Below the pieces are notes generated by a model that was not told where the DNA came from, made no database searches, and saw only the letters and a program-made list of their open reading frames with translations. 64,000 nucleotides of DNA. Origin: Moniliella sp. 'wahieum'. Taxonomy: Eukaryota. The translations under genes and the position numbers were made by a program. Within the stretch, counting starts at the first letter, position 1; every line of letters starts with the position of its first letter. The stretch spans positions 124,001 to 188,000 of the forward strand of contig RSEE01000039.1 in assembly GCA_003971905.1 (NCBI GenBank). Reading direction: 5' to 3'. Shown piece after piece: positions 14,845 through 63,877 of the stretch.

Positions 14845-15135
14845 GGGGGTCAGGGCCTGCGGAGAAGGCGTCTGGGGGGGGCACGCACCATCGCGACGGT
14901 TGGAGGCGCAGAGCGACCGACTGCGACGCTCGTCTGAGCGCAGCGTGTCCTGCGCCGCGCATGCCGTAATCCACGCTGCCCGGGGGTACGTCATGTGACC
15001 CAGGCAGGCAGTAGGGTCACCCATCCTGCACATCACGCCTCCTGCCTCCCGAGGAGGGCCACCTCGGCAGGATGCAATTTGAAACTTGCCATCCCCTCTT
15101 GTGCTTCCGGCCCACCACCCCCCCGCCACCGAGCC

Positions 15136-16523
15136 ATGGACGATCTCCCCGACGACGCGCCGGCCGGTCTCACCGCGGCAAGGAGCCCGAAACCAAGGAG
15201 CCGTTCTACGATGCCGAGCCCGACGAGGATCTGGATGTAAGTGGTGCGCAGAACCAGCTGTGGCTCGTCAAGGTGCCCAAGTTCCTGTTCGATGCCTGGT
15301 CCCAGGTCGAGCAGGCGGGCAGCCGTTGGGCACGGTGCGGCTGTACGACCCCGAGCCCGGGTCTACCAAGACGGAGATGGAGCTCATCTTGCCGCCTGCG
15401 CCAGGGCCTGCGGTACCGCTACCGCCATCGGCTTTTGCGCTGGACCCCACCCTGGCCCATTTGCCCCGCGCCTATAACCTTCGCCTCACCGACCAACACA
15501 AACCGGCAGCCGCAACATCTTTGCCTTCAAGGAGAAGCGGCCGGACGAGGATGTGGCGGCAGAGAAAGAACGAAGGGCGCGCAAGGCACGGCGCAAGGCG
15601 GATGGCAAGGAGGTGGACTCGGGGTCGAACTCGGACGAGTCGGGGAGGAGTCGGAGGATGAAGACGTGCTTCCTCTCCAAGGCGCAGACTCGGCAGCTGT
15701 GCCAGGCAAAAAGCGCAAGAAGAACTCCAAATTCAGGCGTATGTCCTATGTCCCCCCCTCTCACTGCGGGCCGAAGCTAACGATGCGCAGGCCATACGGC
15801 AATTGTCGGCAAGGTGGCGACGAAGGCGGTGGCACGCGGGTCCCATCGACTCTTGCGAGCACCCTGCCCGAGCGGGAGCAAGCTCTCGGGCCGACTCGCG
15901 GAAGAGAAGAGGTTGGATGAGTACCGACGCATGATGAAGCTGCGTCAGTCGCAAGCGATGCAGCCGAAGCGCAAGATGATTATGATGGACGATGTTGACT
16001 CGGGGCTGGAGAGCCGGATCACGTGGGGGCACACCAGCAAGCTGGCTTTTCGGTATGTGGACTTTTTCTTGTTTCGTTTATTGGTTTGCGGTTCGAGGCA
16101 GGCAGGGCGGGTTGCTGACGGGGATGAGCAGACGGGCAAGATCATCAAGCAGGGCAAGGGCGTGGAGAAGTTTGCTCGGATGCCGCGTACGGATCTGCTG
16201 CAGCAGCTGTTTGCGCTGTTTGAAAAGTACAAGTACTACCAGTTCCAGACGCTGCGGCAGCAGACGGAGCAGCCCGAGCCGTACTGCGCGAGGTGCTGTC
16301 GTCGATTGCGCAGATGGAGCGCAAGGGCACGTATGCGGGCTACTGGGCGCTGCGGCCCGAGTACAGTGCCAGCAAGGCGTCGCACCAGCAGGAGCGGGAC
16401 CGTGCGCTGGCGCTGCAGCGCGAGAAGCAGCTGCAGGACAAGGGCGGCGCGTCGGAGGAGGAGGAGGAGGAGGAGGAGGACGAGAACGGGGAGGAGGATG
16501 ACTCGGGGGAGGAGATCATGTAG
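15136..16523 (+). CDS. TFG2: TFIIF beta subunit (Tfg2/RAP30); introns about 15739-15790 and 16053-16130
   Basis: DEDLDVSGAQNQLWLVKVPKFLFDAW N-terminus; winged helix FARMPRTDLLQQLFALFEKYKYY..LRQQTEQPE..VLSSIAQMERKGTYAGYWALRPEY; GTATGT donors. Confidence 0.92.
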
Positions 16524-16803
16524 AAGCACCGACGAATGCGCAAGGTTATTGAGATGGAGCCACGTGATAGGAGCTACGCAGTGAGGTTAATCGGGGGCAC
16601 GTGGGAGTTGAATGTTGCAAGGGGGAGGGGATGTTGTTGGGGGGTCACGTGCCAGAACAAGCTGCACCTCGTCGGGCGAAGGCGGCTGGGATGGCGTTAG
16701 CAGGTAGTCCACGCGGCGCGTACCTCTTACTCTGCTCTCTCTGCTCTAACTACTCCCCCCCTGGCCCTCCTGCCCTGCCCTGCCCTGCCCGCTGTGGGCT
16801 GCG

Positions 16804-19450
16804 ATGCCTGCCCCGCCGCCGCCCAGCCCGCTGCCGCCGCCCTTCTCCCGCCCGGGCCTCGGCACCGTCCGCCGCCTGCCCATCGCCGACTCCTCCGCGC
16901 ACGCCCTCGGTCCTCGCCGCGCCCGCTCCCCGTCGCCCTCGCCTCTTAGCCCTCGCCCTCGCCCTCCCCGTCCCCATCCCATCCCCGCCCCCACGCTCCC
17001 CCGCCTCAGCGACATCGACGCCGACTCGGCCTCCAGCGGCGCCCCGCCCGCCCCCCCCGCCCCGCGCCCCACCCGCGCCCCCATCCCGCCCGCCTTCCGG
17101 CCCCACAGCCCCCATGTGCTCCTGCGCCCCGCCTGCTCGCGTCGCCCTCCCCGCGCCCTCCCCCTCCCCGCCGCCCTCCCCCTACCCATCCATCCCCTAG
17201 TCCCCCTCCAACGACGAACAAGGCTCCACCCTCAGCTGGGCAGCATGGCCAGCCGCCTCGGCCTTGGCCCCGACGGCGATCGGTCTGCGCTCGACCCCTT
17301 GCCGCCGACGTGTCCCGCGCTGATGTCTCCATCGCCGACATGTCTCCCCCGTTGGCATGCGCAACGGCTCGTTTGCCATCGCCACCTCCTCCCCGCGCCC
17401 ACGAACCAGGACATCGTCCTCGCACTTTTTCCCCGTGCAGGACCCCTCCTCCCGCCTACCCCAACGTCCCACCGCATGGGCAAGAGCCCCCGTCCGCCAC
17501 GCGAATTTGTCGACTTGATGTCCGACGCTCGGGGTCCGATGTGGACGACGAGGGCGGGAGTGTGTTGCGCGCTCCCTCATCCGATCTGGGCAGGGCGGGC
17601 GACGCCTTGTCTTTGTCCTCCGCTTCCATTCGACCTGCACTGCACGCGGGCGGAAAGCCACCCACCTAGCTCGCCCTATCGCCCTAGTACCTCGACCCGT
17701 TCGCCCTCGCAAGCCTCGCGCGTCAAATGGATCTTCGTACCGCGTCCCACCAGCCCACTCGCTCTCCCTTGCGCGACGGCGTGTCCCTTACCGCTCTTCC
17801 TCCGCGTACACGACCACGGGACGCTCCTCATGCACCCTACTCTTCCCCCCTCCCGCGCCACTCGGACGAAGGCGGTAGCCGTCTGCCTGAGCGGAGGAGG
17901 GAGGAGCCTCCTCCGCCCCGGCCCAGTGTCGCTGAAATTGCCACGCGTCTACCTCCGCTGCGGACCCACGATCGAACAGCCTCGCTCAGTACCCTGCCCC
18001 ATCGTCCGCTGCGAGCCAGTACGGCGATGAGCCACGCGACACATGCTTCCCTCGCCTCCTTCACCCACTCTCCCACTCGCACACGCACCTCTACCCATAC
18101 CAGCGGGTACGACTCGCTCGTGGACCGTACGCGACGCATTTCGTTTGTCGAGCCCCGCGAGAGGGGCTCCAGCGGGAACGAGAACGAGAACGCGAAGTGC
18201 GCACCGCGTCGCGCCTCAGCTCCAGTCTGCTTCGGCCGGACCGACGCAGTCTCCCCCTCGACTGGTACCCCCGCCCAGCCCGATGCACCACGACTGGCCT
18301 CGTATCCGCTCGCTTACCACGCCCACGCCCACCCCTTGCCTGCCTGCCTCTGCCTCTGCCTCGCAAAGGGCGGGCAAGGCAACGCATCTGCGCAACCTGG
18401 AGCAAGTGGCAGCACGGGTGCCCGAGCTGTATGCCGACGAGGTGGCTCAGCCGTTTGTGGACTTGGCGCAGAACGTGGCAGAGATGAACGTATCGTTGCA
18501 GATGCTGTTGCAGTTGGCGATCGAGGCGCAGGTCGATTCCTCCCTCCAAGTGGGCGAGGATGGGGGAGACGATGGTGGACCGGCTGGCGTCCGTCGTGCG
18601 TGGTAGCGATGACCAAGCGCGCACACTTACGTGCGCTTTGCATGCGCTTGTCGAGGACAAGGACAGGAACCTCAACCCGAACCCGAACCACACTATGGAC
18701 ATGGGCAAAGAACTCCCAAGGAACACCAGCACACCTCTGGTCTAGGCTTGGGCCTGGGCCTATCGCGCACGCCCAGTTCCATGTCCATATCGACCATTGG
18801 CGCTCACAGTGGCCGTTCCACCGCGCGGGCCAGTAGCAGTCTCTCGTTTGCCCCGCGCTGGCCCGCGTTTGAGCCAGCTCAGTACGCTCCCGCCTGCCCT
18901 GCGGCACGGGGAGTACGTGTCCTCCCCTGGCCCTGTGGAGCGGCACGTGCGCGCGGGCAGCGGGAGCCACACGGCCGTGCTGGACGCAGATCGGGCTTGG
19001 CACTACAAGAAAGGCATGTGCGCTCGGTTTCGGAGATGCCGCCCCCCGGGCAGAGGATACAGTTCAGCTTCCCTCTCCCTCCGCCCGCTGCGCCCATCCA
19101 CACCCGCCTCGCCCGACCCCGCCTCGCCCCGGTCCGAGTGGCGCATGCGCGTGCAAGCTCGCCGCGCCGCCGCGGCGGGGGGGGGGTCGCGAGGCCGAGC
19201 TCGGGGCTGGACCTGGGGCTGGGACGGAGGATGGGCGTGGGTACGGGTACGGGTATGGGCCTGGAACGAACGCAGCTCGGCCAGTGAGTGCGTCGCCGGT
19301 GGGATCGACGAGCTGGGACGCGGACTTGTCGGCGCACTCGGGCGACGGACGCGTGTCGCGGACGATGCTGCGGCGCGCGCGGGAGGCGACGGCCGGCACG
19401 GCGCTTGCCTTGCGCTGCGCGCACACGGCAGCAGCACGCCCCAGTAGCCG
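16804..19450 (+). CDS. Hypothetical Pro/Ser-rich protein with a central helical region (boundaries uncertain)
   Basis: Chain of overlapping long ORFs with a protein-like helical segment HLRNLEQVAARVPELYADEVAQPFVDLAQNVAEMNVSLQMLLQLAIEAQVD..LASVVRGSDDQARTLT. No family recognised. Confidence 0.45.
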
Positions 19451-19736
19451 CACGGGGGGCTCAGCTCGGCTAGGCACCATCTCTTGATCTCTTGGTCGGC
19501 GGCGTAGTATATGTTTTTGCACGTTAATCGATCATCGACATGTTCCTGTCGTAACAATAGCACGCACACAGATACCAGTCAGGTGACCCACACATGATGC
19601 ATGACATAAGCCAGCAGCCCCACATGCGCCGGTCCAAGCAGCCGCGCCGCACGCACCATCCCCGCTCTCTGCCCGCCCCATCGCCCCCATCCCCCCATCG
19701 CCCCCATCGCCCCACCACACACCACCGCCACCGCCC

Positions 19737-22700
19737 ATGGCGTCCCTGCGTAGCCGCGCCAGTGCCGAGAGCGACATGGACGCCGCTTGGGCGCCGCCGC
19801 GCCGCCGGGACCGCCCCCCTGTCCACCCTGCCGCCCCACGCCCACGCCCCCGCCCTCCCCCGCCTCGACCCGCCAGCGGCAGCGCACCCACCTCGCCGCC
19901 CTCGCGCTCCACCAGCACATCAGCCGTGCTCTCCGCCCCGGCGTGGGCATCTGCTGCGACGTGTCGGTGGCTGCGTTTGGGCGTGTGTACCGCGTGCACA
20001 AGCTCATCCTCGTCCAGGCCGCCTTCTTCCACGCGCGCTTTGCCCGTGCGCCGGGCGAGGCACACGGCAGCCTGTCTTGTCCGCTCCTCCTCCCCTTGCC
20101 CGACCCCAACATGTCGCGCCCGGCGTTCGAGTACTGTCTGGCCACGCTCTATAGCGCGCCTCCGCCACTGCAGCTGCCCGTGTGGGCCAATCCGCGCGCC
20201 GACGCGCCTCTCAGCCGGCCTTCCCTACCCGCCGGCGCCCGCGCGCATGCCCCCCCACACACAGGCTGCCACCCCGCGCTTCCTCCTCTCCCTCATCGCC
20301 ACCAGCACCTACCTTGGTCTGCCCAGCGTCACCTCCCTCGCCTTCACCCTGCTCTGCGCCAGCATTACCCCCTATACCGTCGCCACCTACCTCGCTTCGC
20401 TGCTGGCCTGGGCATCGTGCCTGCCACCTCGCTCCTGCCTGACGCCCCGCGGCCGCTGGATGAGCTCCTCGAGCCCCTGGTTGGTTGGAGCTCCCTCTCT
20501 ACCGCTTCCCCTCCCCCTCGGCCGCAGCAGATCCAACGCCCGCCACTCCGCCCTCGACGTCGGCCGGCGCCCACTCTGGCCCCCATCCCCTTCCCAATCG
20601 CCTCTCCCCTTCCTCCCCGCCCCCGCCACCGCCCCTGCCACAGCTACTGCTTCCACCGCCGTCCCCACCCCTAGTCCCTCGCCGCCGCCCGAGCCGACGC
20701 TCGACGATCCACCTTCCCGACCCCTTGTATTTTAGGGCTGTCGTGCCGCAAGATTGGCCAGGCAGCCGTGTGCTGGCTCTGTCGCTGGGGCAGTGAGGTG
20801 CTAGAATGGGAGATGCACTTACCGCCCGGCCGTGGCCGACACGACGACGGCGACGAGAGCGGCGGCTACGACGGTTACGACGGCTACCACGCAACTGGGA
20901 CGGCTACGACGCGGACCGCAACGCCCATGCCCAGTATGACTCCCATCCTGCCTTCGCCCTTGCCTTTGCCTTCGCCCTTGCACGCGCCGGCGCACTTACC
21001 GCCGTTGAGCACACCGCAGGGCCCCTTCCTCTCTCCCCGCGCTTCTTCGCCCGTCACGCTCGACGACCCAGGGTCTTCTGACGAGGAGGGGGCGACCCAG
21101 GCGTCGCTGCTGCGCCGCTCGCGGCCCGATTCCGGCGGGTCGGGATCGGGCGAGGGAGGGCTGGACTAGCGGGCCGTGCGACTCCGACGTTCATCTCCCC
21201 CGTGGCGTCTGTTACGTTGGAGCGTGAGCTTGAGCCGGACCCTGAGCCTGTGCGCGCGGCGTCCGATCCCCCCGGGGCGGTGGAACCCCCGCCGCCTGTC
21301 CCGGTTGTGTGGGCGTACGATCCCCAGTTGGGCTTGCCCTCCGCCACGGTTCGCACTCTCATCTCGTCCGACTCGTTCTTTACCTTGACCGAATGGACTC
21401 GGTACAAATTTGCCCGCCAGGTGGTCGAGTTTCGAAGGGCCAAGAAGGCTCACTGGCTCTCCACCGGCGGAAGGGATGCGCAGCCCAACCCCCCCGCCCA
21501 CCGGACCAGACGGGCAAAAGTACTGTAGGACAGGAGCAACTAAAGATCACAATCACGATCAAGACCCAGATCAAAGCCAAGATCAAGACCAAAGCCACGA
21601 CCAAGACCGAGACCAAACCCAAACCCAAACCCAAAACCAAGACCAAGACGAGATGAGAGGGAGTACCGTGACTTGTTTGCTACGGGGATCTACTATACCC
21701 ACATGAGCTTGACGAGCTGAGCAGTATGGCCGATGACGTATCGCCTACCTCGCGCGAGCTCTACACGCCCGGGGACGTGCTGCAGCGTGGGCTGTGGTCG
21801 GGATGGAGCTGCGAACGCGGATCGAGTCGTGTGCGCGACCAAGAGCGGGGACGGGGACGCAAAAGAATTGAACTTGGCAGTCACATTGGGTTCGTTCCGA
21901 CCCGCCCGCGCCAATTCAGAAGAAGCGTTTTGCCCCCTCTTTCACCCGCTTCGTCGTCGCGTGGCCTGCCCGCCTCGCCCAGCGCGCTCTCCCACCGCAC
22001 GCGCGCGCGCAAACGTTTCTTCCGCGTCCGGAGGACGAGACAGTCAAGTTGGGCGACAACTGAGCAGCTTGGTCAGCTCGTCCCAGACCATCCGGGACCA
22101 CCTGTCGCAGTCCAAAGTGGAGATGGAGGAGGTGGTGGCGGATGCGTATGCGGATGCAGAGGCGGATGCGGAGGCGGATGCGTCGTCGACGCGCCGCAAC
22201 GGCAACGGGCTTGGCAGCGTTACGCGACTTGCACGCTTTGCCGCTCCCCCAGGGCGCGCGGGGACGCGGCGTCGGTGCACAAGTCGTTTGGCGTTGCGGG
22301 CGCGCGCGGCGCGTGGGGAGGAGCTGGAGGCGTGGGCGGAGCAAGCGTGGGCCGGGGCTGGGGCTGGGGCCGGGGCTGGGCAGACGAGTGTGCCGCGGTC
22401 GTTGGACAGCTGTGGGTGCCATTTGAACCCATGCGGATCGGGGTGGACTTTTGGGGCGTGGACAAGCTACAAGATCGCAGTCGACTCTATTCGCCCACGT
22501 GGTTCTATGCTGGCAGTCGTGGAACTGTATGTGGTCACGACGCCAAACCGAAAGGACCCAGTTGGCATTTACCTCCAACGCCACAATCCCAGCGACAGTA
22601 TCCCGCCGGCGTCTGCGCCGCCCGAGCAGGGCGACAAGGACAAGCCGCGGCTGCGCGCGCCAGCGCTGGACCAACGTTGAGCGAAACTTTGCACCCTCGC

Positions 22701-23050: not shown

Positions 23051-23497
23051 ACCATTCATTCATCCTCATTCTGTCAACGTTCAACCCCGAGCCAAGGTAC
23101 CTGCCACATGGCGTCCTGTCGTGCTCCCTCGGGTGAGCCGAGCAGGGTGTACCCCCAGCTCCCGCCCGTACCCCGGGGAAGTACATGTAGGTAGGTGGAT
23201 AGGGCAGCCAATTGTGCTTAGGGGGACCCCGCTTGGGTCTATCAGTCCAAGGAATGTTGAACGTGTTTGACGAGGCAAAGGGAGTTAGCATGTAAAAGAC
23301 GATAGCTATTGCATGTCGCGTTCAAGGAACTAGCTATGTCAAGTGGGAATTCTACATCTCAACAGCATGTGGAGTCAAATCATGGGAATTTTTGTAGTAC
23401 AACGGCCTCGAGCGTCGCGAGCGCCGTAACGAAGGGGCATCATGGGATGAAGAAACAGAGAACAAAACAAGGCGAGCTAGTGAACAAGTCGACTTGT

Positions 23498-25503
<2,006 letters not shown>

Positions 25504-26476
25504 GGTAGGAGAGAGAGTGGGAGAGATGGAGGAGAGATGGTGGAGCACCGGCCAGGGGGCTCGTTAAATAAGTGGCCAGTGCGCGCCCCCAGAAGCCCCG
25601 AGGCGGGGAGCGCACACTGGGGCGGTGCGGACCCACCGCCGCCGGGAGGCGCAGGCACAGGGGCAGTGGTCTGTGGTTCTCCGCCGCCCCCCACGCGGGG
25701 GGAACAGAAGAGGAGGGAAGACCAACGAACCAGGCCGAACCAGCCACGGCCGCCCGTGTCGCCCCCCCCGGTGGGTCCACACTGCCCCTGTTCGGAGCGG
25801 ATAGGCAGATGCCACCTGTCAAAACAAACGTCATGCATGGATGGGTGACCGCCCGGCGTGGTCAGGAAGGCCCCGACGTCATTCCAGCCGACACGACAAT
25901 CTTCTATCTGCCTTGGCGAATCTACTCAGCAGCTGAGGCCCCCATCTCGGGCGTCCCAAGTCGCCCCACCTATTCTTCCATCCTGTCTCCGCCCATGGCT
26001 GTGGGGTGGAATGCCTGTTCCAGAACAACGCATTGGCGCGTGGCGGAGTAGATGACGTGGACGAGCAAGATGGTATCAAAGAGAGAGATAAGAGCATCAA
26101 AAGGAAAGGACAGCGAGGAGAGAGGGGAAGGGGATGTGAGACCTGAGGCCTGAGGCGCTAGCGGGGGACAAGCAAGTAGCGTGGCTAACACTGATATGAC
26201 ACGGACCGAGAGGAGCTTGTCCATAACAGCGTCAACGTGGGCATTGCCGACGACATGTTGCCATGCCATGTAAACGTTGCATCATCGAGCAACTGCGACA
26301 AACAATCAAAACCGATGTCACATGTCACAGCTGCTGCGCCGACGCCCGCTCAGCCTGAGCGCTCAGCCCCAGCAAACTTGATCGTCTGGTGCGATCCAGC
26401 GATCCAGCGCAGCAACAGAAACTCGGGCTGAGGCTGCACCTCAGGCTGAGGCCTCAGGTCTTGCCATCATCGTAAG

Positions 26477-36869: not shown

Positions 36870-37390
36870 GCGACATACGACGCATCCCCATGGGGAAAGC
36901 GGAGTTGAAATGTGCAATGCGAGCCCGCAGCGCGGTCGTCGGTACGCCGACAAAAAAGCTCGGCTGGAGACGTGGCCCGATGCACACAGGGCACCGGGGC
37001 AGTGAGCTGCGGACCTTCCACGAGCTTCCCCTGGCCTCCACCCCAGGAGCCCATCCAGGCCCATAGCTCTCGCTCTCCTTGGCTCTTGGATTCCATCTCC
37101 ATCCCTCATCGCCGGCATGTGGCCGTCGGTACGCCACACGGACGCTCTTCAACGGCCAACCGACGATTCTCCTCATGTTGCGGTCAAGGTATGTTCCATC
37201 TCTCCTCTCCTCCTCTCCACTGATCTAACCCTTCCATTTCGGCCAGGTACCCATGTCCTTCACGGCACGGCCTACCCTTTGGTTGGACCTCTGGCGTAGC
37301 AGAATGGAGGAGACAACCTACCTCCCCAAGTGGAGCCGTGACGGAGCACGATCCGTCGGCCTGGGCCGGTTTGGCCACCGGGGAATTCAG
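36870..37390 (+). repeat. Diverged paralogous segment, copy A; matches 44152-44260 and 45195-45452, including a shared intron
   Basis: Shared catccccatgggga..gcggagttgaaatgtgcaatgcgagcccgcagcgcggtcgtcggtacgccgacaaa and tgttgcggtcaag|gtatgttccatctctcctctcct..ccactgatctaacc..cag. Confidence 0.85.
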
Positions 37391-37808: not shown

Positions 37809-38226
37809 ATGCTGCCCCTCCCGCCTCTGACCGAGTTCCAGTTCACCTTCCGCCTCTCTCCTCTGACCACGAGCCCGGGTCTGCCATCTAACTACACCCC
37901 CCCCCGCTACTGGCTGGCGCCCATCATTCCCATCCGAGCATCCGAACTTCCAAGTTGGGCACGATCGCAACGCCCAGCCAGGCCCTTCGATTCTGCGCAA
38001 GAAGCCAAAGGCGGCTGAGGAGCGGGTGCTGGCGCCAGCGGTGCCCCGGGCCAGGTTCGATGTCAACACGGCCGAGCCTCGCGTGACCGTGCGCAAGCGT
38101 CGCCATGGGCCGGTGGTGGTGGAGGTGTATTGCCCAGAGGTGGAGATGCAGGACGCGTGGGACATGGTGGAGGAGGTGTATTGCCCTGAGGTGGAAATGG
38201 TGGACGCATGGGACCTGGACCAATGA
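37809..38226 (+). CDS. Small hypothetical protein (one frameshift) with a C-terminal 17-aa tandem repeat
   Basis: TAAATAA about 75 bp upstream; MLPLPPLTEF start; PSILRKKPK..PRARF; EVYCPEVEMxDAWD twice; T-rich 3' region. Confidence 0.4.
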
Positions 38227-38316
38227 CTGGCTTTGTTTTCGTTTTCGTTTTCGTCTTTGTTTCGTTGTTGTGTTGATCGTTGAAGAATGAGATTGGTTTA
38301 AAACTACAATGGTTGG

Positions 38317-38497
38317 TGTCACAGTCGGGGCTAAGGCGAGGGAGACCAGGATCGGACTAGGCCAAGGGGTGTAGCAATCGTTCGTGGGGAAGAAGCAAGA
38401 ACAGAGGACATGGTGCGAAGTGGAAGGAACAGGGAAGGAGCGAGACGCTCGAGACGAAGAAATTGGAAATGGGAGCGAGATCAGCCAAACTATGACA
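38317..38497 (-). repeat. 3' LTR (181 bp)
   Basis: tgtcacagtc...aactatgaca, adjacent to the polypurine tract. Confidence 0.96.
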
Positions 38498-38539
38498 TTG
38501 CCCCCTTTCAGACCTCATCTCCCGGGCGGCGACGGAGGC

Positions 38540-40484
38540 GAGAGAGGGCGAGTCGGCGGGCATGGGAGACAGGCTTATCGGGTGGGTAGAGGGCGTGGAA
38601 ACGGACCACTGGCTCGGCGTCATGAGACATGTCCGCAGCGGGTACCCACTCCCGCTCGTGGACAGGATAGCCCCGGAAGTGAACAAAGTACTCAATGCGG
38701 CCACCACGACCCTTGCGGCGAGAGTCGAGGACATGTTCAACCTCGTGATGAACCGCACCATCATCAGCATACTCGGGGAGAGGAGGGGGGGCTCAATCAA
38801 GCGGGCAGGGACCACGTCACCAGGGGTGTAGGCTCGCAAGCGGGACACATGGAACACGTCATGGAGGTGTAGGTAGTCGGGGAGGCGGACCTGGTATGCG
38901 GCGCGGCCCACGGCGCGGACAATGGGAAAGGGGCCGAGGTAGCGATAGTCGAGGCCGTCAGAAGGCCGCTGGCTGGCCACATAGCCGTCCCGACGGAACC
39001 AAGACAGGCTGGCCAGCAGTGAAGGAAGCCGCCTCGGTGCGCTGCTGATCGGCATAATTTGTAGCGGTCTTGGGCCGCGGCGAGCGTGCGGCGGGCCACC
39101 GCCTGGGCCGAGCGCAAGTCCTCCAAATATGACGCAGCATCGGGCACGGGCGAAGTGGAGGGCTCCAACTCCCCCGGGGAGAGTAACCATAGGTGAGGAC
39201 AAAGGGGGACTGGTGGGTGCTCGAGTGGGAGGACGAGTTGTAGGCGAATTCGGCCGTGGGGAGGAGGTCGAACCAGTTGGACTGCTGCTCGTCGAGGTAG
39301 CAGCGGAGGTGCTGTTCGAGGATCTGGTTGAGTCGCTCAGTCTGGCCGTCCGTCTGGGGGTGGGACGCGGTGCTGAGGCTCGACTTGATGCCCAAGTCGG
39401 CACACAAGGCTTGCCAGAAGTGGCTTGTGAAGGTCGGTCCCCGATCACTCACCAGATCCCGGGGAAGGCCATGGTAGCGAAAGACATGGTGTACAAACTG
39501 GCGTGCGAGCTGGGGCGCAGTGTCCGTCGTGTGGGCGGGAATGAAGTGACCCATTTTGGTACAACGATCCACCACCACCAGAATCGCGTCGTAACCATTG
39601 GATCGGGGAAGCTGGGTAATGTGGTCCATCGTCAAGTGGGTCCACGGGCCTTGGGGAGGGGAAAGGGGCTGAAGGGGTCCGGCGGGTTGGTGGCAAGGCG
39701 CTTTGGTCCGTTGGCAGCGGTCGCACGAGCGCACGTAGGCCCACACGTCGGCTGACAGGCGGGGCCACCAATATTGAGCGCGGACACGGGCCAACGTCTT
39801 GTCGCGCCCTTCATGGCCCGCCAATGCCGAGTCGTGGGCTTGGTGGAGAATGGCAGCGCGGATCGGCCGGTCGCCGGGGACGTAGACCTGGTTTCCGTGC
39901 CACAAAAGACCGTCGCGGACCGTCAAAGCATGGGGAGGTGGGCTTGGAGCCGTAGCAAGGGACCAACGAGGGTCACGAGGCACGAGTTGGCGGATGCGCT
40001 GTCGAATCTCGTCGGCAGACGCTCGCTCCACCACCGGTGTATCGGGGTCCGCCGCCATGAGCTTGAGGGCGGCGGCAGAACGTTCGGACATGGGCTCGGC
40101 CAGTACTTGAGGTGCCGCGCCAGCGGGCCGGGAGGGAACCGAGGAGGGAAAAGGAATCGAGTTGACAGAGGGGGGCGAGATGGGGTTAGATGAGGAGGTG
40201 GACTTGGGCCGGGGCCGGGCGAGTGCTGGTGCTGGTGCGTAGTCTTGGTCTTGGGCTGGTCTGGGTGCTGGGGCTGGTCTTGGGGCTGGGGCTGGTCTTG
40301 GTGCTTGGGCTGGTCTTGGGGCTGGGGCTGGTCTTGGGGCTGGGGCTGGGCTTGGGGCTTGGGCGGGAGTTGGGGCTTGGGCGGGAGTTGGGGCTGGGGC
40401 TGGGCTTGGGGCTTGGGCTGGGCTTGGGGCTTGGGCGGGAGTTGGGGCTGTGGCCGGGGTACAGTCGTGGAAGGCATATGGTGA
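38540..40484 (-). CDS. Pro/Ala linker, retroviral-type integrase (HHCC, DDE core, GPF/Y) and chromodomain; 3' part frameshifted
   Basis: AHDSALAGHEG..YWWP..SCDRCQR; TMDHITQLP, VSDRGPTFTSHFW, HPQTDGQTERLNQILEQHLR; YLGPFPI..LHDVFHVSRL; HEVEHVLDSRRKGRGGRIEYFVHFRGYPVHEREWVP. Confidence 0.93.
40225..40450. repeat. (GGGGCT/TGGGCT)n hexamer minisatellite inside the LTR element; G-quadruplex-prone on the plus strand
   Basis: Visible array gggctggggctggtcttggggct..., encoding APAPRP/AQAPSP in the integrase frame. Confidence 0.9.
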
Positions 40485-41660
40485 TCACGGCACTGCGCCT
40501 TGAGCGCGGCGCTCGGTGCGCCGGGGCCGCTTCAGCGGTGGCGGGTGACTGCGCTGAGGTCCATGGGCTCCGCTTCGGGCGACGAGGGCCGAAACCAATG
40601 ATTGCCGCCCGATCCCGGGGAGATGGCGGTACCATGAGCGCCCAGCGATTGCGATTGGTCGATGTCAATGGCCGCTGTGCGCAGTTGTTCGAAACTGATC
40701 CGTCCCAAGTGAGCCGACTCGCCGCGGGAGGCGATTGCGTCACGCACCCGCGGCTTCAAGCCGTACAGAAAGCAATAGTAGCGGTCCTCATCCGACGCGT
40801 TGGGGTTCCAGCGACGCAGCAGAACCGTGAACGTAGCGGAATAGTCCGCTGCAGATCCCGTCTGCCGAAGACGACGAAACTCCTCAAACGCCTTCAGCGC
40901 CGGGTTGCGCTCGCCCCACTGCTCCAGGAAAGCTGCGCGAAACGCAGGCCAAGACTGGAGGGCGGGTGTGGTGCGCGCCTCCAGGGGAAGGGCCACCTCC
41001 GAGCCGAACTGCTCGACCCAAGTGAGGCCTCTCCCTGCAGCAGGCCCATGAAGCGGTCGATCCATGCCGCCGCGCCCATATGCGTGAGGGCGACGCGCGC
41101 GTAAATCTCGAAGGAGGTGACGACGTGCTGGGCCTGGACCGGTCACGAGAGTTGGGATTCGCACCAGACGACGGGCGGAAACGAACGGGCTCGAACATCT
41201 TAGGCTCTTCCGACACCGTGTTCGGGATGGCAGTCAGATCACCATAAGGCCCAGGGGCGGGAGCGGGGGCGGGGGCCGAGGACACCACGCCAGTTTGAGC
41301 CTCCCGTACCGAGGCGGCCAACCGGGCCTCTTCCGCGGCAAGCGCCGCCTCCTCCCGCCGCTGACGGAGGCGGTGCTCACGGCGCTTCGCCTCTTGCTCA
41401 TCCTCGAAAGCGCGGCGCTTCGCCTCTTGCTCATCCTCGAAAGCGCGGCGCTGGTCCTCCTGGGCTGCAAGGTAGGCCTGATTTTCCCGGGCCTCCGTCA
41501 ACAGAAGCTGGCGCATTCTGCGGGCCTCATCGACCCGACGCTGAGCGGCCTCGAGGCCCAGCCCGGACAGGTCGGAGGCAGGCAATGTATACCCCGGGGC
41601 GCGGGCGCAACAGACGGAGCTGCATGGGGGGGTCCAGAGGGGCCAGCCGGGTGGAACCAC
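40470..41660 (-). CDS. Gag: coiled-coil N-terminus, Retrotrans_gag domain, EPMDL motif and degenerate zinc knuckle
   Basis: RRAFEDEQEAK twice; SWPAFRAAFLEQWG..AFEEFRRLRQTGSAADYSATF..FLYGLKPRVR; EPMDLSAV; ERRAQG..HDC. Confidence 0.88.
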
Positions 41661-41832
41661 TCCGGGCCATCGTCGTCGAACGGAGCGTCAGAGGGGGGGT
41701 CGGACGGGGGTCGGATTGGGCCGCGCCGCGCGATGGGTTGCGGCGCGCTAGGGTACTGGGGTCAGGGGGGGTTGTCGTGGATCGAGGACATCTCTGGTCG
41801 GGCTCGCCTGTTGACGGTTAGACGAACGATAA

Positions 41833-42017
41833 TGTCACAGTCGGGGCTAAGGCGAGGGAGACCAGGATCGGACTAGGCCAAGGGGTGTGTGTAGCAATCG
41901 TTCGTGGGGAAGAAGCAAGAACAGAGGACATGGTGCGAAGTGGAAGGAACAGGGAAGGAGCGAGACGCTCGAGACGAAGAAATTGGAAATGGGAGCGAGA
42001 TCAGCCAAACTATGACA
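41833..42017 (-). repeat. 5' LTR (185 bp) followed by a self-priming-type PBS at 41822-41830
   Basis: Matches the 3' LTR. The minus-strand PBS ATCGTTCGT is complementary to ACGAACGAT inside the LTR (41897-41905). Confidence 0.93.
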
Positions 42018-42219
42018 GTTGGTATATAGTATTGCATAGCACAATGTGAGGCCAAGGGTATGGAAAACGGGCGTCTGGGTAGATGAAGTGGATAGTAACG
42101 CTGGAGAGAAGGGATCTAGGAATGCCCGTGGGGATGAAGCTGCGTGGAGAGGAGGCATTGAATAATCCTCGACTGGACCTCTTGATGCGAGGGGGGGGAC
42201 GCACCCACTACTAGGAGTG

Positions 42220-42325
42220 CGACGTGACACGTGCGATCACATGTGAATGGCTGGTGACATGGGCTGTGACATGGGATGTGACATGGGCTGTGTGTGACTG
42301 AGCTGTGACATGCGATGTCACATCT
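42220..42325. repeat. Array of TGTGACATGGG-type 12-bp units
   Basis: ggtgacatgggctgtgacatgggatgtgacatgggctgtgtgtgactgagctgtgacatgcgatgtcacat. Confidence 0.8.
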
Positions 42326-53152: not shown

Positions 53153-56100
53153 ACCACGGACAGGTGTTTGCCGTCAAGTCGGTTCTCCAACGGCCCGTGG
53201 CCTTAATCCAAGGACCTCCTGGTACGTGGAAGACAGTGACGAGTGCGACCATCGTGTACCATTTGAGCCGGATGAACCCTCAACCAGTGCTCGTCGTAGC
53301 GCCTTAGAACGTGGCTGTGGACCAACTAACGGAGAAGATTCACAAGACCGGTCTCAAAAAGTGGTGCGCTTGGCGCGGCCAAGAGTCGTGAAGGACTGGA
53401 TAGTCCAATATCCTTTTCGAAACTTCATGAACAGGTTCGCACAATAAGGGTCATATGCCGAGCTGCAAAAGCTGATCAGCTCAAAAACGAACAAGGCGAG
53501 CTGTCGAGCTCCGACGAGCGCAAGTACAAATCGCTGACACGTGCCTGCGAACGGCAATTGCTCGATGCCGCTGATGTCATCTGTACTACTTGTGTTGGGA
53601 CGGGCGATCCTCGGTTGAGCCAGCTCAAGTTCCGCACCGTATTGGTAGACGAGGCGACCCAAGCAGCCGAACCCGAGTGCATGATCCCACTCGTGTTTGG
53701 TTGCAAGCAGGTTGTATTTGTTGGGGATCATCTCCAGTTAGGGCCGGTGATTATGAACAAAAAGGCTGCCCGGGCAGGGTTGGCCCAGTCGCTGTGTGAG
53801 CGTCTGATTATGCTGGGCAACAAGCCGACTCGGCTGCAAGTCCAGTACCGAATGCACCCTTGTGCTTGTCTGACTTTCCGTCCAAAACATGGTTTACAAG
53901 GGCACGTTACAAAACGGGGTGACTGCTCCAGAGGAGGTACGCAAGAACGTCAACTTTCCCTGGCCCAATCCTTCATTGCCTATGTTCTTCTTCTCCAATC
54001 TGGGACAGGAGGAGATCTCTTCATCTGGTACTTCGTTCCTGAACCGAACCGAGGCGAGCAACGTCGAAAAGATTATCACCCAGTTTTTCCGATCCGGCGT
54101 AACTAGTAACTCCAGACCAAATTGCGGTCGTGACGCCGTATGAGGGCCAGCGGTCGTACGTGGTCAACCATATGCAACTGCATGGTAAGCTCAAGAAGGA
54201 ACTCTACAAGGAAGTCGAGGTGGCGTCCGTCGATGCGTTTCAGGGGCGCGAGAAGGATTATATTATTCTGTCGTGCGTGAGGAGTAACGATCACCAGGGC
54301 ATTGGCTTCTTATCGGATCCGCGGCGTCTGAACGTAGCGCTGACACGAGCCAATTATGGGTTGGTGATCCTGGGGAATCCCAAGGTGCTCTCTAAGCATC
54401 CGCTGTGGTATCATCTCCTTCAACACTTTAAGGCGCAGGGACTCCTGGTCGAGGGAGTGTTGTCCAACCTGCAGCCAAGTATGATTCAATTTACTCGCCC
54501 GCGTCGGCGGCTGCAACAACCCGGCGACTTGATGGCGCGGTACCGTCATGAAGTGGCGTACGATCACTCGGCCCATCCTGCTATGCAGATTGCAGCAGCG
54601 TGGAGTTCCCTCTTCCTATGGGATGCCCAATGGAGCTCCTTCGTCATTTGCCGTGCCCAGCTACCCGCCGAGTTTTGCCATGGGCCCGCCCAGCACGGTG
54701 GGGAGTGAGTTTGACACGCAGTCGATCGCTTCGCTCAACACGCAGGGCTATCCGTCGGCGCATTTGCCCCCCTACGTATCGGCAGCAGGGTTGGGCACAT
54801 CCTCGCTTGCAGGCTCTTACGTCGAGCCAACGCATCATCAGACGCATGGGCCTGCCTATAGCGCCACTCATCGACGCAAATATGCGCCCTCGAGCTATGC
54901 CCCAGCCTGGCCGACACGGAGGACTAGACAGGTTCGTACAGTCAAGCGTATGCAGCCCCTAACCCTTAACCGATTGATCGCTTGGACACCGGTACGATGG
55001 GGCGGGACCGAGCATTTGAGGGCAGGGGGCTGGACTTGGAGGAGGATAGGCGGTCGACGTACTCGGTGAGTACGTCCCAGGCCCTCCTCACATGTTTTAA
55101 CCCGGACTCCGTAATGGTCGCTGCGAGACGCGAGAAAGAGCTGGCTAGATCCTCAGGCGGCGCTCTGTTGCCAGAGCAGAGTGAGGGCTGGGCTAGTCTT
55201 TGATGCGCCTTACCATATACCAATCTCTCGGCATTGGCCAGCTAACCCTTTCCCATCGATGAGATGCGAGTGGCGCTGGCGATTGGGCGCGCCAGTGGCC
55301 GATGCGTGTTGTGTGCTGCTGACTCGGCGCTCCAGCAGAGCGCATGCCCTGTGAGTTGGACTGCCCAGCTGACGCCATTGGGTGGCCTGACTGAGGCCAT
55401 CCGCGGCGCACGTGTGGCGACGGCTACAGATGTTGGCTGCTTGGCGGCATGGCTGCTGATGAGATGGGTCGGCCTGCAATGGGACATGGAGGGAAGAGCT
55501 GAAGTTAGAAGACCAATTGCGTTGGTGCAGCGGGTATCATAGGGGAAGCCAGGAATCAGTGACTAGTGAGGGGCGATGGATGCTCCCGTGGCGGGTGACC
55601 TGCTCTGAGCGAGTCGCGATGGATCATCACGTGATGGGAGGGCGATGGAACGCCTGAGAACGATCCCACGCCCGAAGGCCTCGTGGCGCGACTGGGGCTG
55701 GGCCTGTCTGGGCGGAATGGGGCAGATGCACCGGCTGGCGGAACGCCACCCAGGCTGGATGCCAGGCAGAGGGCGAGTGTTCGTGGCGGCCAGCCATGGC
55801 TTGCGATGCTCCAGCAGCCGTCATCGATTCATCGATTCATCGCCCATCGCCAGCCCCCGTGTCGGTGCGGTCGCCATCGCCATCGCCGCCGCCTCCACCT
55901 CACCCCCACCATCCGCGTCCCACCCACTGTCTGGCTGCCTTTCCCTCTGCCCATACACCACCACCACCACCACCGCCACTGCTTCTGCCCCCCCGCCTTC
56001 CGGCCCCACCTGCTACAGCCCCCGCCGCTGCCGCCCTCCCCCGCCCCCGCCCCTACCCCTTGGCTGGAGCGATGCCTGACTCGGCCCGCCGACCCAAGCT

Positions 56101-56194: not shown

Positions 56195-58558
56195 ATGTAC
56201 TCCTCCCCATCCGCAAGCCCCGCGCCCCAGGCTGCGTACCTCTCCTACCTCAACCAGCAGCACGGCTCGGCCGCGGCCGCTGCTGTTGCCAGCCAATTCC
56301 TTCCCCATTCTCATGGTCCTGCACCTGGAAATGCCTCGAGCACCATGGGTGCCAACGGACTCTATTCGCGCTATGTTGGTGCCAACAACTCGGGTAACGC
56401 TGCTGCCTGGCCTGCCCAGCGCACGTTAGCCGGTCAAAGCGGACATCAAACCTCCTCCGTCTTCCCTCGTTGGTTCTTCTACCAACGGCATCCCAGGATC
56501 TCCTGTCAACTATGCTGCAGTCCACACCTCTGCGGCCAACTCCAGCGCCCGTAACTTCCCTCCGCTCAACTCTCCCCGTCTCCTCACCACCCAATCACCC
56601 GCTCATTCCCACGTACCTAATGGCAACAGCGTCTTGTCCCCCGCGGTGATCAACTCGCCCCACTGGAAAGCTCAGAAGAAGGGTGCCGACGTATGTGCTT
56701 CCTCATCTGCATTTGTAAGGTCAACTTAATACTCACTCACCTTGGCCGTTTCAGATCTCTCGCCAATCCGGATCCCCGCATCACCATGCTCGTGCGGCTG
56801 CCACGGCAGCAAGGACCGCATCGAACGTGGTGGATGCGTCCAAGGCACTTCTCCCGCCAATGGACTTCGTCTTGAGGCAATCAAGCCATCCGGAACCACG
56901 CCGATGCCGAGTTCGGATGAACCCGCCAGTTCGCCAGCGAAGCGAGCCACGATTCCGGGCAAGATTCCTCCTCGAGAGGTGGACGAAGACCAGTCTTGGA
57001 CCCAACTCGATTTGGGTGGCATGCATCTTCGTGCCTTGGCCCCGGAGCTATTCCGCTACGATTTTTGACGTCCCTCTTCATTAATCACAACGACCTGACT
57101 GCGCTGACTCCCGAGATTGCCAAGCTCAAACACCTCGAGGTGCTTGACGCGTCGCAAAACCGATTGACACTCCTTCCCCCGAGCTGGGTCTCCTGCCGGG
57201 GCTGAGGGAGTTGTACTTGTTTGACAACGCCATCACTGTTCTGCCCCCTCAGTTGGGAATGCTGTACCAGCTTGAGATGTTGGGGATCGAGGGCAACCCG
57301 CTCGACTTGGAGCAGCTCGCAGAGATCCAGCAAGAATGGAACGGTTGCTCTCATCCATGCCCTTCGGGACAAGAGTCCCACCTTGCCTGAGCCGGCCAAA
57401 CGAAAGTGGATCAACTTGACGTCGGAGGCTGAGGGGAACGAGGACCAAGATGAGGAGGCCATTTCTCGTCTGGATGAGCCCGACGACCGAAGCGAGACGT
57501 TGAGTGTGATGGGCTACAATGTTTTGGCGGACAAGTTGGCGACGGAAGCTATCTTTGGCTACACACCCTCGTGGGCTCTCCAATGGGACTACCGCAAGGA
57601 GATCATTGCCAAGGAGATCCAACAGCTGGGGGCGGACATGGTGTGTCTCCAAGAGGTCGGGATGCAGCAATACGACGAGTTTTTCGCGCCGTTGTTGCAC
57701 ACGTATGGCTATGCTGGTGTGTACTATGCCAAGTCCCGAATCAAGACGATGCGTGACGAAGAGAAGCGTCGGGTGGATGGGTGCGCTGTCTTTTACAAAC
57801 GGGCCAAGTTCCATATGGTGGACAAGTTCGTGATTGAGTATGGCCAGGCGTGCCTCCAACGGGCTGACTTCCGTGCGAGTGAGGACGTCTATAACCGTGT
57901 TATGCCCCGCGACCAAGTTGGCGTCATCTGCTGTTTTGAGTACCGCGACACGGGGGCCAAGCTCATTGTGGCTAACACTCACTTGCACTGGGACCCGGCC
58001 TATTCCGACGTTAAGCTGGTTCAGGCTGCGATGCTGATGGATGAGCTGCAGAGAGCGGGCAAGGTGTTCTGTAAGCGCAAGACGGACGTCACTCTCCCTG
58101 CTGGTGCGGTTGCGCCGACGTATGCCGATGGCAATGCCGTACCCACCATCCTCTGTGGCGATTTCAACTCGGAGCCGAGCAGTGGGTGTTTGAGTTCCTC
58201 CAGTGGTCTGTTGTCCGGCCAGCATGAGGACTTTTTGGACAAAACCTATGGTGATGTGACGGGTAAAGGGCTGCAACATGGGCTTCCGCTCAAGAGCAGC
58301 TACGGCGCGGTTGGGGAGCTGCCGTTTACCAACTTCACCCCAGGCTTTGTGGGGGTGCTGGAATACCTGTTTTACAGCACCGACACGGTGGAGCCCACTG
58401 CGTTGCTAGGACCTGTGGACGAGGAGTATGCAACAAGGTGCGTCGGCTTCCCCGACGCACACTTCCCCTCGGACCACATCCCACTTGCGGCCAAGTACCG
58501 TATCGGGCTACCTTCGGACGCCAAGGTGGTCCGTCCGGCGCCGGCCTCCTCTGCGTAA
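56195..58558 (+). CDS. CCR4: CCR4 deadenylase (LRR plus EEP nuclease); intron about 56691-56753
   Basis: WTQLDLGGM..LAPELFRY..FLTSLFINHNDLT LRRs; MGYNVLADK..FGYTPSWALQWDYRK..CLQEV; ANTHLHWDP..DVKLVQ; CGDFNS; FTNFTPGF; FPSDHIPL. Confidence 0.96.
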
Positions 58559-62199: not shown

Positions 62200-63877
62200 T
62201 TACCAGTTACTGCCGCCGCGGTCGGGAGGGACGATCGCGCTCCTGGCGATCATGACGATCGAATCGCGCTGAATCGTAACAGAAGGCTGGTCAGGGCTTG
62301 CGGATCGGCGTCGGTCACGGCCCAAGGATCGGTCTTGATGAGACGCCACGGCAGACTGGTCGTCATGGGAGTAGGTAATCCAGTCCTGAGCCCGACTCGC
62401 CATCAAAGTGGTCCAGCTCGTGACGGTTTTTGCGACGGGAGGTACGAGACGGACGATGGGAAGGTGCGCCCCACCGCCCGCGGCGGTCGAACGCGCGCGT
62501 GGGTCTCGCGGCCGAGGTTGATTGCCTTCCTTGCCATCTTCTTCCTTACCGGCGGGAGCTCCATTGCCCTCACCTTCCTCATCGTAGGACGAAACAACAG
62601 GCGGAGCCGATCCGGGAGGGCCGCGACCAATGTGAATGGCAGGCATCGCGCCCGCATCAGGCCCGGGCGTGCCATGAGGACTGTTAGGGATACCGGTCGG
62701 GCCAGCGAGAGGGTAAGGTGCCGGTGGACGAGGTGGAGGAACCCCTGGCGCTGCCGCATTCGGATAGGCTGCCCCCATGCCCATCTGGGCATGGAGCATC
62801 TGTTGTTGCATGGCAGCCAATTGTTGATTGATCTGCGCCTGCAAGGGCGCCGGCATGGTGGCAATGATTTGGTCTGGGTTCATTCCTGGCATGCCCATGG
62901 CCGGATCAAAGTTGGCATACAGTCCCTCGTTGGCCGCTTGGCTCTCCATGTCCTCCTTCTCGGCCATGACTTGACGTTGATGAGTAGCCCAGCGAGCCCA
63001 GCTGTCCTCGTCAAAGCCATAGTTGAACCAATCGGTCAAGTCAGCCCCGGGGCGACGCCAGGGTTTAGACGCCATCGAGGCGGGATCCAAGTGGTACAAG
63101 TTGGTCCGGCCAAACTTGCCCCCCTTGGCACCAGGACCACCACCGGGCAAATCCATGTCGGACACTTGCAGATCCGCCATGGTGGGCGACATGCGCAGCG
63201 TCGGGGCTGTCGCTGGTGCATGAGGCGGTGGACCCTCGGCTCCTTCGGGCAAGGTGTGCACCAGACCATCGTCCGGTGCAGCTTGGGGGATGTACACCCC
63301 CGCGACGAGCGGGGCAGAGGCGTGTAATCCGACGTGAGACTGGCCGATTCAGCTGTGAGAAAGGCATGGGAGCCAAGCGAGCAAGGAAATGCATTGGTCA
63401 GCAGCCATGGCCATACAGGCCAGCAGCAGGAGAGATCACCCCCACCTCCTCCCAGGCACAGAGGGAAGAGCAAAAAAAAGGAAAACGAGCGATGGGCGGC
63501 AAGGGAAACGTATGACTTACTGGGCTGTTTGGGCGCGTGTGTGGCGGCGCCAGCGGGAGAGACGCACCAGGGATGTGAGCTCGGAGCAAATGGGTGAATT
63601 GGCTCATTGTTGGAGGGGACGAGTGTGCCGGAGGGCTTGTCGGAAGCGGCCACATCAGGTGCGTCCATCACAATCTCAAGATCCTCATCGCTCGACTCAT
63701 CGCTGCTCTCCTCCATCGCGCTACTGCCGCCATCCCCAGCGGGAGAAGGTGCTGTTCCGGACGCTGGGTCCGTGGCCGTTGCAGGTTGGGGCGGTCCCGC
63801 TGCCGCTACGGCAGGGGTAGATCCGTTGGCATCGGGCGCAGCGTCATCGCCGTAGAAATGCGTCGTCATCGTCCCAT
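62200..63877 (-). CDS. FIP1: Pre-mRNA polyadenylation factor Fip1 with at least one intron
   Basis: MDDDDAFLYGD-like start (one indel); ESSDEDLEIVMD; Fip1 motif KPWRRPGADLTDWFNYGFDEDSW; RD/RS-rich tail. Confidence 0.93.

Follow-up and report, generated by a model that had tools for sequence, protein, structure and literature searches.

The element and its termini

The minus strand of the window (the whole 64-kb stretch of DNA analysed here) carries a copy of a fungal LTR retrotransposon of 3.7 kb, between positions 38317 and 42017. Its terminal features, in order of transcription, are the following.

42018..42022, minus strand: target site duplication CCAAC, upstream copy (read from the sequence)
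41833..42017, minus strand: 5' LTR, 185 bp, TG...CA (direct repeat families D2 and D3; BLAST)
41897..41905, minus strand: ACGAACGAT within the 5' LTR, presumably the transcript 5' end, which would fold back as a self-primer (9-nt complement; analogy with Tf1)
41822..41830, minus strand: PBS-like site ATCGTTCGT, without a tRNA-type TGG start (9-nt exact complement to the LTR)
38498..38509, minus strand: polypurine tract GAAAGGGGGCAA, adjoining the 3' LTR (read from the sequence)
38317..38497, minus strand: 3' LTR, 181 bp (direct repeats; BLAST)
38312..38316, minus strand: target site duplication CCAAC, downstream copy (read from the sequence)

The two LTRs match in 181 of 185 aligned columns (BLAST), and all four differing columns belong to a single 4-nt ACAC/GTGT indel, with no substitutions. 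The LTR termini are TG...CA and the target duplication is 5 bp, within the 4-6 bp of complete Ty3/gypsy chromoviruses. An earlier note on this DNA had described a complete 3.7 kb element with intact target duplication and polypurine tract and with LTRs identical apart from one repeat indel, and every part of that description holds, with CCAAC on both sides and the purine tract abutting the 3' LTR. The insertion is recent, as that note also proposed, because no substitution is present in 181 nt of LTR. No second copy of the element lies in the 64-kb window, where BLAST matches are confined to the element itself, the LTR pair and a minisatellite. Gene conversion between LTRs could mask the age of an insertion.

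The cis signals retained are the LTRs, the PBS-like site and the polypurine tract. The PBS-like site is an exact 9-nt complement of LTR nucleotides 113-121, and a complement of at least 9 nt was reached by only 4 of 2000 shuffled LTRs. By analogy with Tf1, the element would be a chromovirus of the self-priming type. Self-priming is described in the relevant portion of PMC2864245.

Coding regions and reading frames

Between the LTRs the following coding features and repeats were found, and five Pfam families (Retrotrans_gag, Integrase_H2C2, rve, SH3_Tf2-1 and Chromo), with no others, score above their curated cut-offs.

40485..41791, minus strand: gag, ATG 41791-41789 to TGA 40487-40485 (one ORF only with the indels of run X1 applied)
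41380..41452, minus strand: perfect 33-bp tandem duplication in gag, 2.2 copies (TRF, 100% matches)
40751..40987, minus strand: Retrotrans_gag domain PF03732 (E 3.8e-07; 30.7 bits, cut-off 24.1)
40450..40494, minus strand: remnant of a zinc knuckle, with QCRD and SPYAFHDCTP in different frames and no canonical CCHC (regular expression, three frames)
40133..40484, minus strand: linker in place of protease, RT and RNase H, with no family match in any frame (Pfam, tblastn)
40242..40454, minus strand: 18-bp minisatellite, 11.9 copies, 86% matches, rich in Pro/Ala when read in the integrase frame (repeat search, TRF)
39699..39863, minus strand: integrase H2C2 zinc-binding domain PF17921 (E 1.9e-22)
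39357..39647, minus strand: integrase catalytic core PF00665 (E 7.6e-11; D287, D347 and E383 of a 508-aa ORF)
38828..38968, minus strand: integrase C-terminal SH3 (Tf2-1 type) PF24626, in another raw frame (E 8.2e-14)
38613..38744, minus strand: chromodomain PF00385, in the third raw frame, with stop TGA at 38510-38508 (E 1.6e-08)

In the raw sequence Gag is spread over at least three frames, and integrase, SH3 and chromodomain lie in three different frames. Frame changes at this rate match the error rate of the assembly, as an HSP70 gene elsewhere in the window is broken into seven overlapping ORF pieces, spanning Pfam profile positions 1-587 in order, with at least six frame changes in about 1.8 kb. 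Three sequencing runs were listed with words matching the element, and one of them, the public run X1 (share of words 0.43), is the one carrier among the three; it holds a copy about 98% identical over LTR, PBS side, gag and integrase. The window differs from the X1 contigs by 11 indels, mostly beside short single-base runs. When the X1 indels are applied, Gag becomes one ORF in the same frame as the linker and integrase, a single TGA stands between them, and one frame break, near 39003, is left in the integrase-chromodomain region. Because HSP70 is broken in the same way and X1 differs by indels at those sites, the frameshifts of the element appear to be mostly assembly errors, and frameshifts in this Moniliella assembly should not be taken for gene decay. 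Runs X2 and X3 were rejected as carriers, their alignments being confined to the low-complexity minisatellite, apart from a short X3 piece in the flank (37023-37056). No RNA run carrying the element was present among the runs listed, and no joint of an empty insertion site occurred among the X1 alignments listed.

The Gag region ends irregularly. Retrotrans_gag is present, although the nucleocapsid knuckle of a complete chromovirus is not. The claim of a Gag knuckle in the earlier note could not be upheld, as a regular-expression search of the three sense frames gave no CX2CX4HX4C motif and only two half-motifs lie in different frames at about 40450-40494; by reading, a canonical knuckle is not restored by single-base shifts. 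The knuckles of six gag-pol relatives served as the comparison set. Gag can be matched to the usual ...ERxRR...LCxYCG ending only as far as ERRAQG, near 40498, and the TGA at 40487-40485 then divides Gag from the linker. Word-based searches of protein collections ('longer' and 'near') gave no relative of Gag at E <= 0.001.

The integrase region is more complete. The catalytic core has the spacing D-x59-D-x35-E, the catalytic D, D and E are preserved along with the H2C2 residues, and the H2C2 domain, DDE core and SH3 domain are followed by a chromodomain, the arrangement of a chromovirus integrase. Its relatives are at most 55% identical, both among the best 150 representatives and among the best 120 longer proteins. 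The protein and metagenome collections searched yielded no close relative of the element, and a scan of JGI metagenomes gave seven loci of 35-42% identity and no member of the family. The protein P0003 was considered as a precedent for an RT-less element and rejected, being a 543 aa integrase-only protein on a 1.8-kb contig and so uninformative on structure.

The region between Gag and integrase

A complete autonomous chromovirus has protease, RT and RNase H upstream of its integrase, and here these domains are missing. Pfam found none of them in seven ORFs, a set that covers the linker in all three minus-strand frames, and a motif search of the element found no DSG/DTG, RT-type YxDD or DALSR motif. 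Searches by tblastn with ten full-length pol relatives matched only 40133..38562 (integrase, SH3 and chromodomain); protease, RT and RNase H had no match within the element, and the rest of the window gave no hit with E below 0.1. The absence of these domains, which had been claimed from motifs, is thus borne out, also by the search for RVT_1 and RNase H profiles inside the element. With no protease, RT or RNase H of its own, the copy is unable to replicate or reverse-transcribe alone and is therefore non-autonomous.

The place of the missing domains is taken by 352 bp that are largely the 18-bp minisatellite. The RT-bearing relatives P0176 and P0178 become homologous to the element at window positions 40118 and 40133, respectively, a point that in both proteins lies about 12 residues past ADALSRR (their RNase H Pfam domains extend to 629 and 713). 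The frame from 40484 to 38958 is stop-free, as had been reported, but the further reading of the linker as an in-frame coding segment is undermined by the minisatellite, over which every sense frame is open: the stretch 40200-40480 is stop-free in all three minus-strand frames and in five of six frames overall. Since all three sense frames are stop-free there, the open linker is weak evidence of coding.

The linker could, in principle, have been made by the assembler, if a complete element stands at the locus and about 3 kb were lost at the minisatellite during long-read assembly. The indel errors in the 1.8 kb HSP70 gene (at least six) are compatible with this, as is the failure of the X1 contigs listed to bridge 40133-40497. 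However, the errors observed are indels of one to three bases with no kilobase losses, long reads should easily span a missing part that is unique and has unique flanks, and the junction falls at sensible domain borders. An artefact of this kind is consequently considered very unlikely.

The X1 alignments listed, beyond which the comparison had 64 further contig rows and 11 loose-end rows, end at the two borders of the linker, 40498 and 40132, where 100 and 37 letters run on unaligned, and leave 40133-40497 and parts of the flanks without cover. The complete form may therefore be represented by the ~98% identical X1 copy, whose stop at 40132 coincides with the start of P0178 homology at 40133. 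This lends some weight to the possibility that the window copy is a one-off: a deletion of about 3 kb from a complete autonomous element, by template switching in the same round of reverse transcription or by a deletion soon after insertion, with the deleted form never itself copied. The single copy in the 64-kb window is in keeping with such an event. Moreover, defective HIV-1 proviruses with large internal deletions are known from the literature consulted, and LTR elements that carry internal deletions, vary in size and are related to an active member of a family are routinely found, according to the portion of PMC3286476 that deals with them. A one-off deletion would leave the 352-bp linker unexplained, its minisatellite units being 14% diverged, unless the linker was native to the parent.

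The state of the integrase

The comparison with X1 also bears on how the deleted copy arose. Over 39268-39867 the window and X1 differ at seven positions, five of them nonsynonymous, and at all five X1 agrees with P0176 and P0003 (F, Y, Y, L, R) where the window has C, S, H, P and C. The direction of these five changes is judged from relatives that are just 53-54% identical. If the integrase changes had followed insertion, about 3.6 LTR differences would be expected at an LTR-to-LTR divergence of 2%, and the probability of seeing none is 0.027. As five conserved residues have been replaced and yet the LTRs are without substitution, the damage to the integrase would predate the insertion. A working master copy, by comparison, predicts a working integrase, and five conserved replacements in 200 codons alongside no LTR substitutions argue against a one-off deletion from such a master, which we regard as possible but doubtful. 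Some of the window substitutions could be assembly errors, yet the HSP70 pieces read normally apart from their frame breaks.

The integrase thus looks like a decaying passenger rather than a kept function. It is to be noted that, among the 14 listed window/X1 substitutions that can be assigned to a frame, with 58 differences beyond those listed, seven are synonymous, above the neutral expectation. Gag and integrase may still work, given the intact D, D, E and H2C2 residues and a Gag that can be restored to one ORF.

These last features would be expected of a semi-autonomous family that propagates with a working Gag and chromodomain integrase of its own, a flexible linker connecting the two, and depends on a helper chromovirus for protease and RT-RNase H alone. 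Further points in its favour are the intact target duplication, the LTRs identical bar the indel, the Gag frame that with X1 indels is in register with linker and integrase across one TGA, two listed differences in the chromodomain region that are both synonymous, and a 3-nt difference at 38581 that preserves the frame. Against it, five of seven integrase-core differences are nonsynonymous, all five with loss of the conserved residue in the window copy; the canonical knuckle is absent and a TGA follows Gag; and with all three sense frames open in the linker, a frame match has a one in three chance. In addition, the window has no second copy, the relatives reach at most 55% identity among the best listed, Gag has no detectable relative, and a Gag-linker-integrase product without its own protease would need the cleavage sites of the helper. 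Such a family is considered improbable. Were it real, a semi-autonomous lineage in a smut-related fungus would choose its own sites, and the TGA between Gag and linker-integrase would act as a read-through signal setting the ratio of Gag to integrase; this idea is held to be no more probable than the family itself.

Origin of the deleted copy

The earlier note had proposed a distinct parasitic class with its own working capsid and chromodomain-targeted integrase. This proposal is not supported, given one copy in the window, the loss of the conserved residue at five of five integrase amino-acid differences from X1, the non-canonical knuckle and the TGA between Gag and linker; moreover, families with GAG and INT/chromodomain remnants have already been published from sugar beet, in the sections of PMC13570524 on non-autonomous elements. 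The best reading is that a putatively self-priming chromovirus gave rise to this element as an ordinary, non-autonomous deletion derivative, a common fate that calls for no new class. The fuller identification, as a young, internally deleted, non-autonomous Ty3/gypsy chromovirus copy in a smut-related basidiomycete, we hold at about even confidence.

As an ordinary deletion derivative, the element would have lost the segment from the Gag zinc knuckle through a few codons past the end motif of RNase H, and with it protease, RT and RNase H. The 352-bp, mostly minisatellite stretch would have replaced this segment, leaving LTRs, PBS, polypurine tract, gag and integrase-SH3-chromodomain in place. 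The source RNA was probably defective already before insertion, and the RNA of the element would have been packaged, copied and integrated in trans by the proteins of a complete relative. This order of events, like mobilisation in trans and self-priming, is what we infer from the structure of the copy. The junction was seen once, in the window copy, a point against this account, so that mobilisation of the deleted form is putative.

As it stands, the locus holds another defective LTR retrotransposon copy, useful mainly for annotation, and it indicates that a putatively self-priming chromovirus family was very recently active in this lineage. If the same junction were present at several sites with a conserved integrase, it would clearly exemplify a non-autonomous retroelement controlling its own integration sites.

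Comparison with known systems

Near counterparts of the integrase region are chromoviruses of basidiomycetes and metagenomes (P0176, P0178, P0008 and P0012, with P0012 coming from Microbotryum silenes-dioicae), in which integrase, SH3 and chromodomain are collinear with those of the element and 50-55% identical. The element shares with all four an ...AAPQVL.EP... stretch between RNase H and integrase. RVT_1 and RNase H occur in all four, together with a protease in P0178 and a canonical knuckle in P0012, and the element has none of these.

The element resembles the Tf1/sushi type of Ty3/gypsy elements in that a site just 3' of the 5' LTR is complementary to the LTR interior rather than to a tRNA end, and in its 5-bp target duplication and integrase with a C-terminal chromodomain. 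The self-priming complementarity of Tf1 is 11 nt, whereas the complement here, with the putative 5' end of the transcript, is 9 nt. RT and RNase H, the enzymes of self-priming in the Tf1/sushi type, are absent from the window copy.

Among non-autonomous classes, LARD and TRIM elements have no coding between the LTRs, where this copy has five Pfam domains. TR-GAG elements, as cited in PMC13570524, and wheat RLG_Quinta, in the corresponding part of PMC11302176, are similar in being non-autonomous, encoding Gag and taking their enzymes from an autonomous partner. However, TR-GAG has a Gag ORF only, with no pol enzymes, and Quinta has only GAG plus a domain whose function is unknown (PMC11302176, same part), so that neither has an integrase, whereas the window copy retains integrase, SH3 and chromodomain. 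A literature search gave no paper, in the portions retrieved, naming an RT-less class with Gag, integrase and chromodomain, although PMC13570524 covers such remnants generally.

There is a close parallel with sugar beet, from which the relevant sections of PMC13570524 report 15 non-autonomous families with POL remnants including INT and chromodomains, eight of the 15 also with GAG/PROT; according to the same sections, no term exists for non-autonomous LTR elements of 1.5-4 kb, a range that includes the 3.7 kb of the present element. The second category of elements described there likewise keeps LTRs, target duplication, PBS and polypurine tract, has highly identical LTRs, and combines GAG with at least one POL domain in incomplete coding. 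The window copy has this make-up of a partial-pol non-autonomous LTR element: cis signals, GAG, and integrase and chromodomain as POL domains, with coding incomplete. The sugar beet elements, in those sections, are multicopy families of a plant with mostly decayed domain remnants, whereas the element described here is one fungal copy that has kept the catalytic residues of its integrase and shows a clean absence of protease, RT and RNase H.

Structure of the element

The Ty3/gypsy chromovirus-type element is present once in the window:

42017 to 38317, minus strand: LTR element, 3701 bp

Its LTRs (185 and 181 bp) have the termini TG...CA and are equal in 181 of 185 aligned columns; the remaining four columns are one ACAC indel, so that there are no substitutions between them. 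The five bases CCAAC occur on either side of the element and the purine run GAAAGGGGGCAA adjoins the 3' LTR. The LTRs alike except for a repeat indel, the flanking duplication and the purine tract reported in the earlier note, whose observation was largely right, are thus all visible in the sequence. No tRNA-type site was found two bases behind the 5' LTR; the sequence at this point, ATCGTTCGT, is the exact complement of LTR nucleotides 113-121, a 9-nt match that was reached by only 4 of 2000 shuffled LTRs. Both insertion flanks are repetitive (38114-38218 and 42249-42292): a 51-bp tandem repeat of 2.1 copies lies on one side together with AAAACG units in a run, and a 12-bp repeat (3.6 copies) on the other. 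A 42-nt pair lies at 37500 and 37603. At 36971-37118, a contig (depth 30.3) from X1, a public sequencing run with a near-identical copy of the element, matches at ~87% with a joint that goes back 148, suggesting that a distinct family of short repeats, or a duplication, lies close to the element.

Coding content

The Pfam domains Retrotrans_gag, Integrase_H2C2, rve, SH3_Tf2-1 and Chromo were found above curated cut-offs, and no others in the seven ORFs scanned, which included the linker between Gag and integrase in each of its three sense frames. Matches in tblastn to 10 full-length gag-pol or pol relatives were confined to 40133..38562 (integrase, SH3 and chromodomain): protease, RT and RNase H had no counterpart within the element, and the rest of the 64-kb window gave no hit with E below 0.1. 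Motif scans of the element revealed no DSG/DTG and no DALSR; two YxDD-type matches, YADD shortly before the chromodomain and FDDD close to the N-terminus of Gag, were rejected, as neither lies in an RT. Pfam, tblastn and motif scans therefore agree on the domain inventory first proposed, and the claim of non-autonomy is borne out. The integrase retains its H2C2 residues and the catalytic D287, D347 and E383, spaced D-x59-D-x35-E. Within gag, a perfect 33-bp tandem duplication (41380-41452, 2.2 copies, 100% matches) repeats the peptide EDEQEAKRRAF.

Edges of the gap and the linker

In the nearest relatives with an RT, the sequence behind RNase H is ...ADALSRRxDLxxGGxAxEAxPQ(V/I)LLEP..., and homology of the window to two such chromoviruses, P0176 and P0178, begins at AAPQVLAEP (40118) and SRPAG (40133), respectively, so that on its 3' side the gap ends a few codons past the RNase H end motif. 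On the 5' side, Gag reaches ...RRTERRAQG at ~40498, where six relatives go on with LCxYCG..GH....CP. The pattern CX2CX4HX4C is absent from the knuckle region of the window in every frame; in its place are just QCRD and, in a different frame, SPYAFHDCTP. The edge-to-edge span of 352 bp consists mostly of an 18-bp minisatellite (11.9 copies, 86% matches); it has no stop in any of the three sense frames and is open in five of six frames overall. The proposal of an in-frame linker holds in that the integrase frame is stop-free, but, since every sense frame is equally open, this openness is no evidence of a designed linker.

Frameshifts and the X1 copy

In the raw sequence, Gag is split over several frames, as is the integrase-chromodomain region. 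The HSP70 gene at 23355-25563 (minus strand) provides a background: it lies in seven overlapping ORF pieces of alternating frame, which match the Pfam profile in order at 1-120, 120-184, 200-237, 234-279, 293-419, 403-455 and 453-587. An essential gene thus changes frame at least six times in ~1.8 kb, the pieces leaving no space for introns, which corresponds to about one single-base indel error for every 300 bp of assembly. Every frameshift in this genome should be treated with distrust, and several host genes recognised by Pfam are likewise split over adjacent ORFs, as expected from indel errors.

Host genes recognised by Pfam
7388-8325: WD40 protein
13776-14835: POM33/TMEM33
15015-16584: TFIIF beta
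53330-54708: AAA_11/AAA_12 helicase
57206-58558: Exo_endo_phos nuclease
62200-63348: Fip1

The region 16000-22000 has 67-68% G+C and long ORFs (up to 426 aa) without a Pfam match.

Over 3.3 kb, the element needs about seven or eight frame changes, a rate not above the HSP70 background. Pieces of X1 (Logan contigs) are ~96-99.6% identical to the window at 38317-38677, 39016-39266, 39268-39867, 39945-40132, 40498-41339 and 41468-41832, with 17 indels, of which 12 are listed: 11 inside the element, most of these adjoining a short single-base run, and one in the flank. Applied by script, the 11 indels yield a single Gag ORF, with 463 codons between stops, and leave one frame break near 39003, ahead of SH3 and the chromodomain. 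The broken frames are therefore uninformative on decay, and an intact Gag is possible. The restored ORF shares its frame with the linker and integrase and terminates at a TGA (40487-40485) which, like the knuckle region, falls outside the listed X1 pieces.

Among the X1 alignments listed, the two contigs beside the gap stop at 40498 and 40132, exactly the linker borders and, at 40132, at the start of P0178 homology, with 100 and 37 letters running on. This suggests a different sequence there in the X1 copy and, from these alignments, gives a hint of a complete pol. A further X1 contig (724 nt, depth 8.85) runs from internal region through a single LTR to internal region, joining 41832 to 38317; it could be a tandem pair, a one-LTR circle or a path that the assembler took through a repeat of many copies. 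Word-based protein searches (E <= 0.001) detected no Gag relatives, and no integrase relative above 55% identity was present among the best 150 representatives or the best 120 longer proteins; a metagenome scan gave seven loci at 35-42% identity.

Integrase substitutions and the probable order of events

Across 39268-39867, window and X1 differ at seven positions, five of them nonsynonymous. At all five, X1 agrees with P0176 and with P0003, an integrase-only protein, in having F, Y, Y, L and R, where the window has C, S, H, P and C. Frame breaks aside, the sequence of the HSP70 pieces is that of a normal HSP70, so substitution errors seem rare and the five replacements are probably real. Had they arisen after insertion, about 3.6 LTR differences would be expected, and the probability of zero is 0.027; the replacements are thus most likely older than the insertion. 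The integrase of the element that supplied the source RNA of this copy would then already have been drifting, and the RNA would have been mobilised by proteins produced elsewhere. Counting against a drifting integrase, 7 of the 14 frame-assignable substitutions among the differences listed are synonymous; a further 58 differences fall outside this count.

Comparison with known non-autonomous elements

The earlier note suggested a distinct class, with its own Gag and chromodomain integrase and borrowed protease and RT. The claim of a new class that keeps its integrase is unsupported, as the window departs from the residue of X1, P0176 and P0003 at all five nonsynonymous differences. Literature searches found no paper naming a Gag, integrase and chromodomain class. 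By its content, the element is neither a TR-GAG, LARD or TRIM nor a complete chromovirus. Among LTR elements, relatives of an active family with internal deletions are described as routine finds (PMC3286476). The sugar beet account reports 43 non-autonomous families with domain remnants, 15 of which retain POL-associated domains such as RT, RNase H, integrase and chromodomain, eight of these 15 with GAG/PROT also, and argues for a continuum that spans TRIM, LARD, TR-GAG and derivatives in partial degradation (PMC13570524). The element fits this broad known kind, as a non-autonomous derivative with a partial pol.
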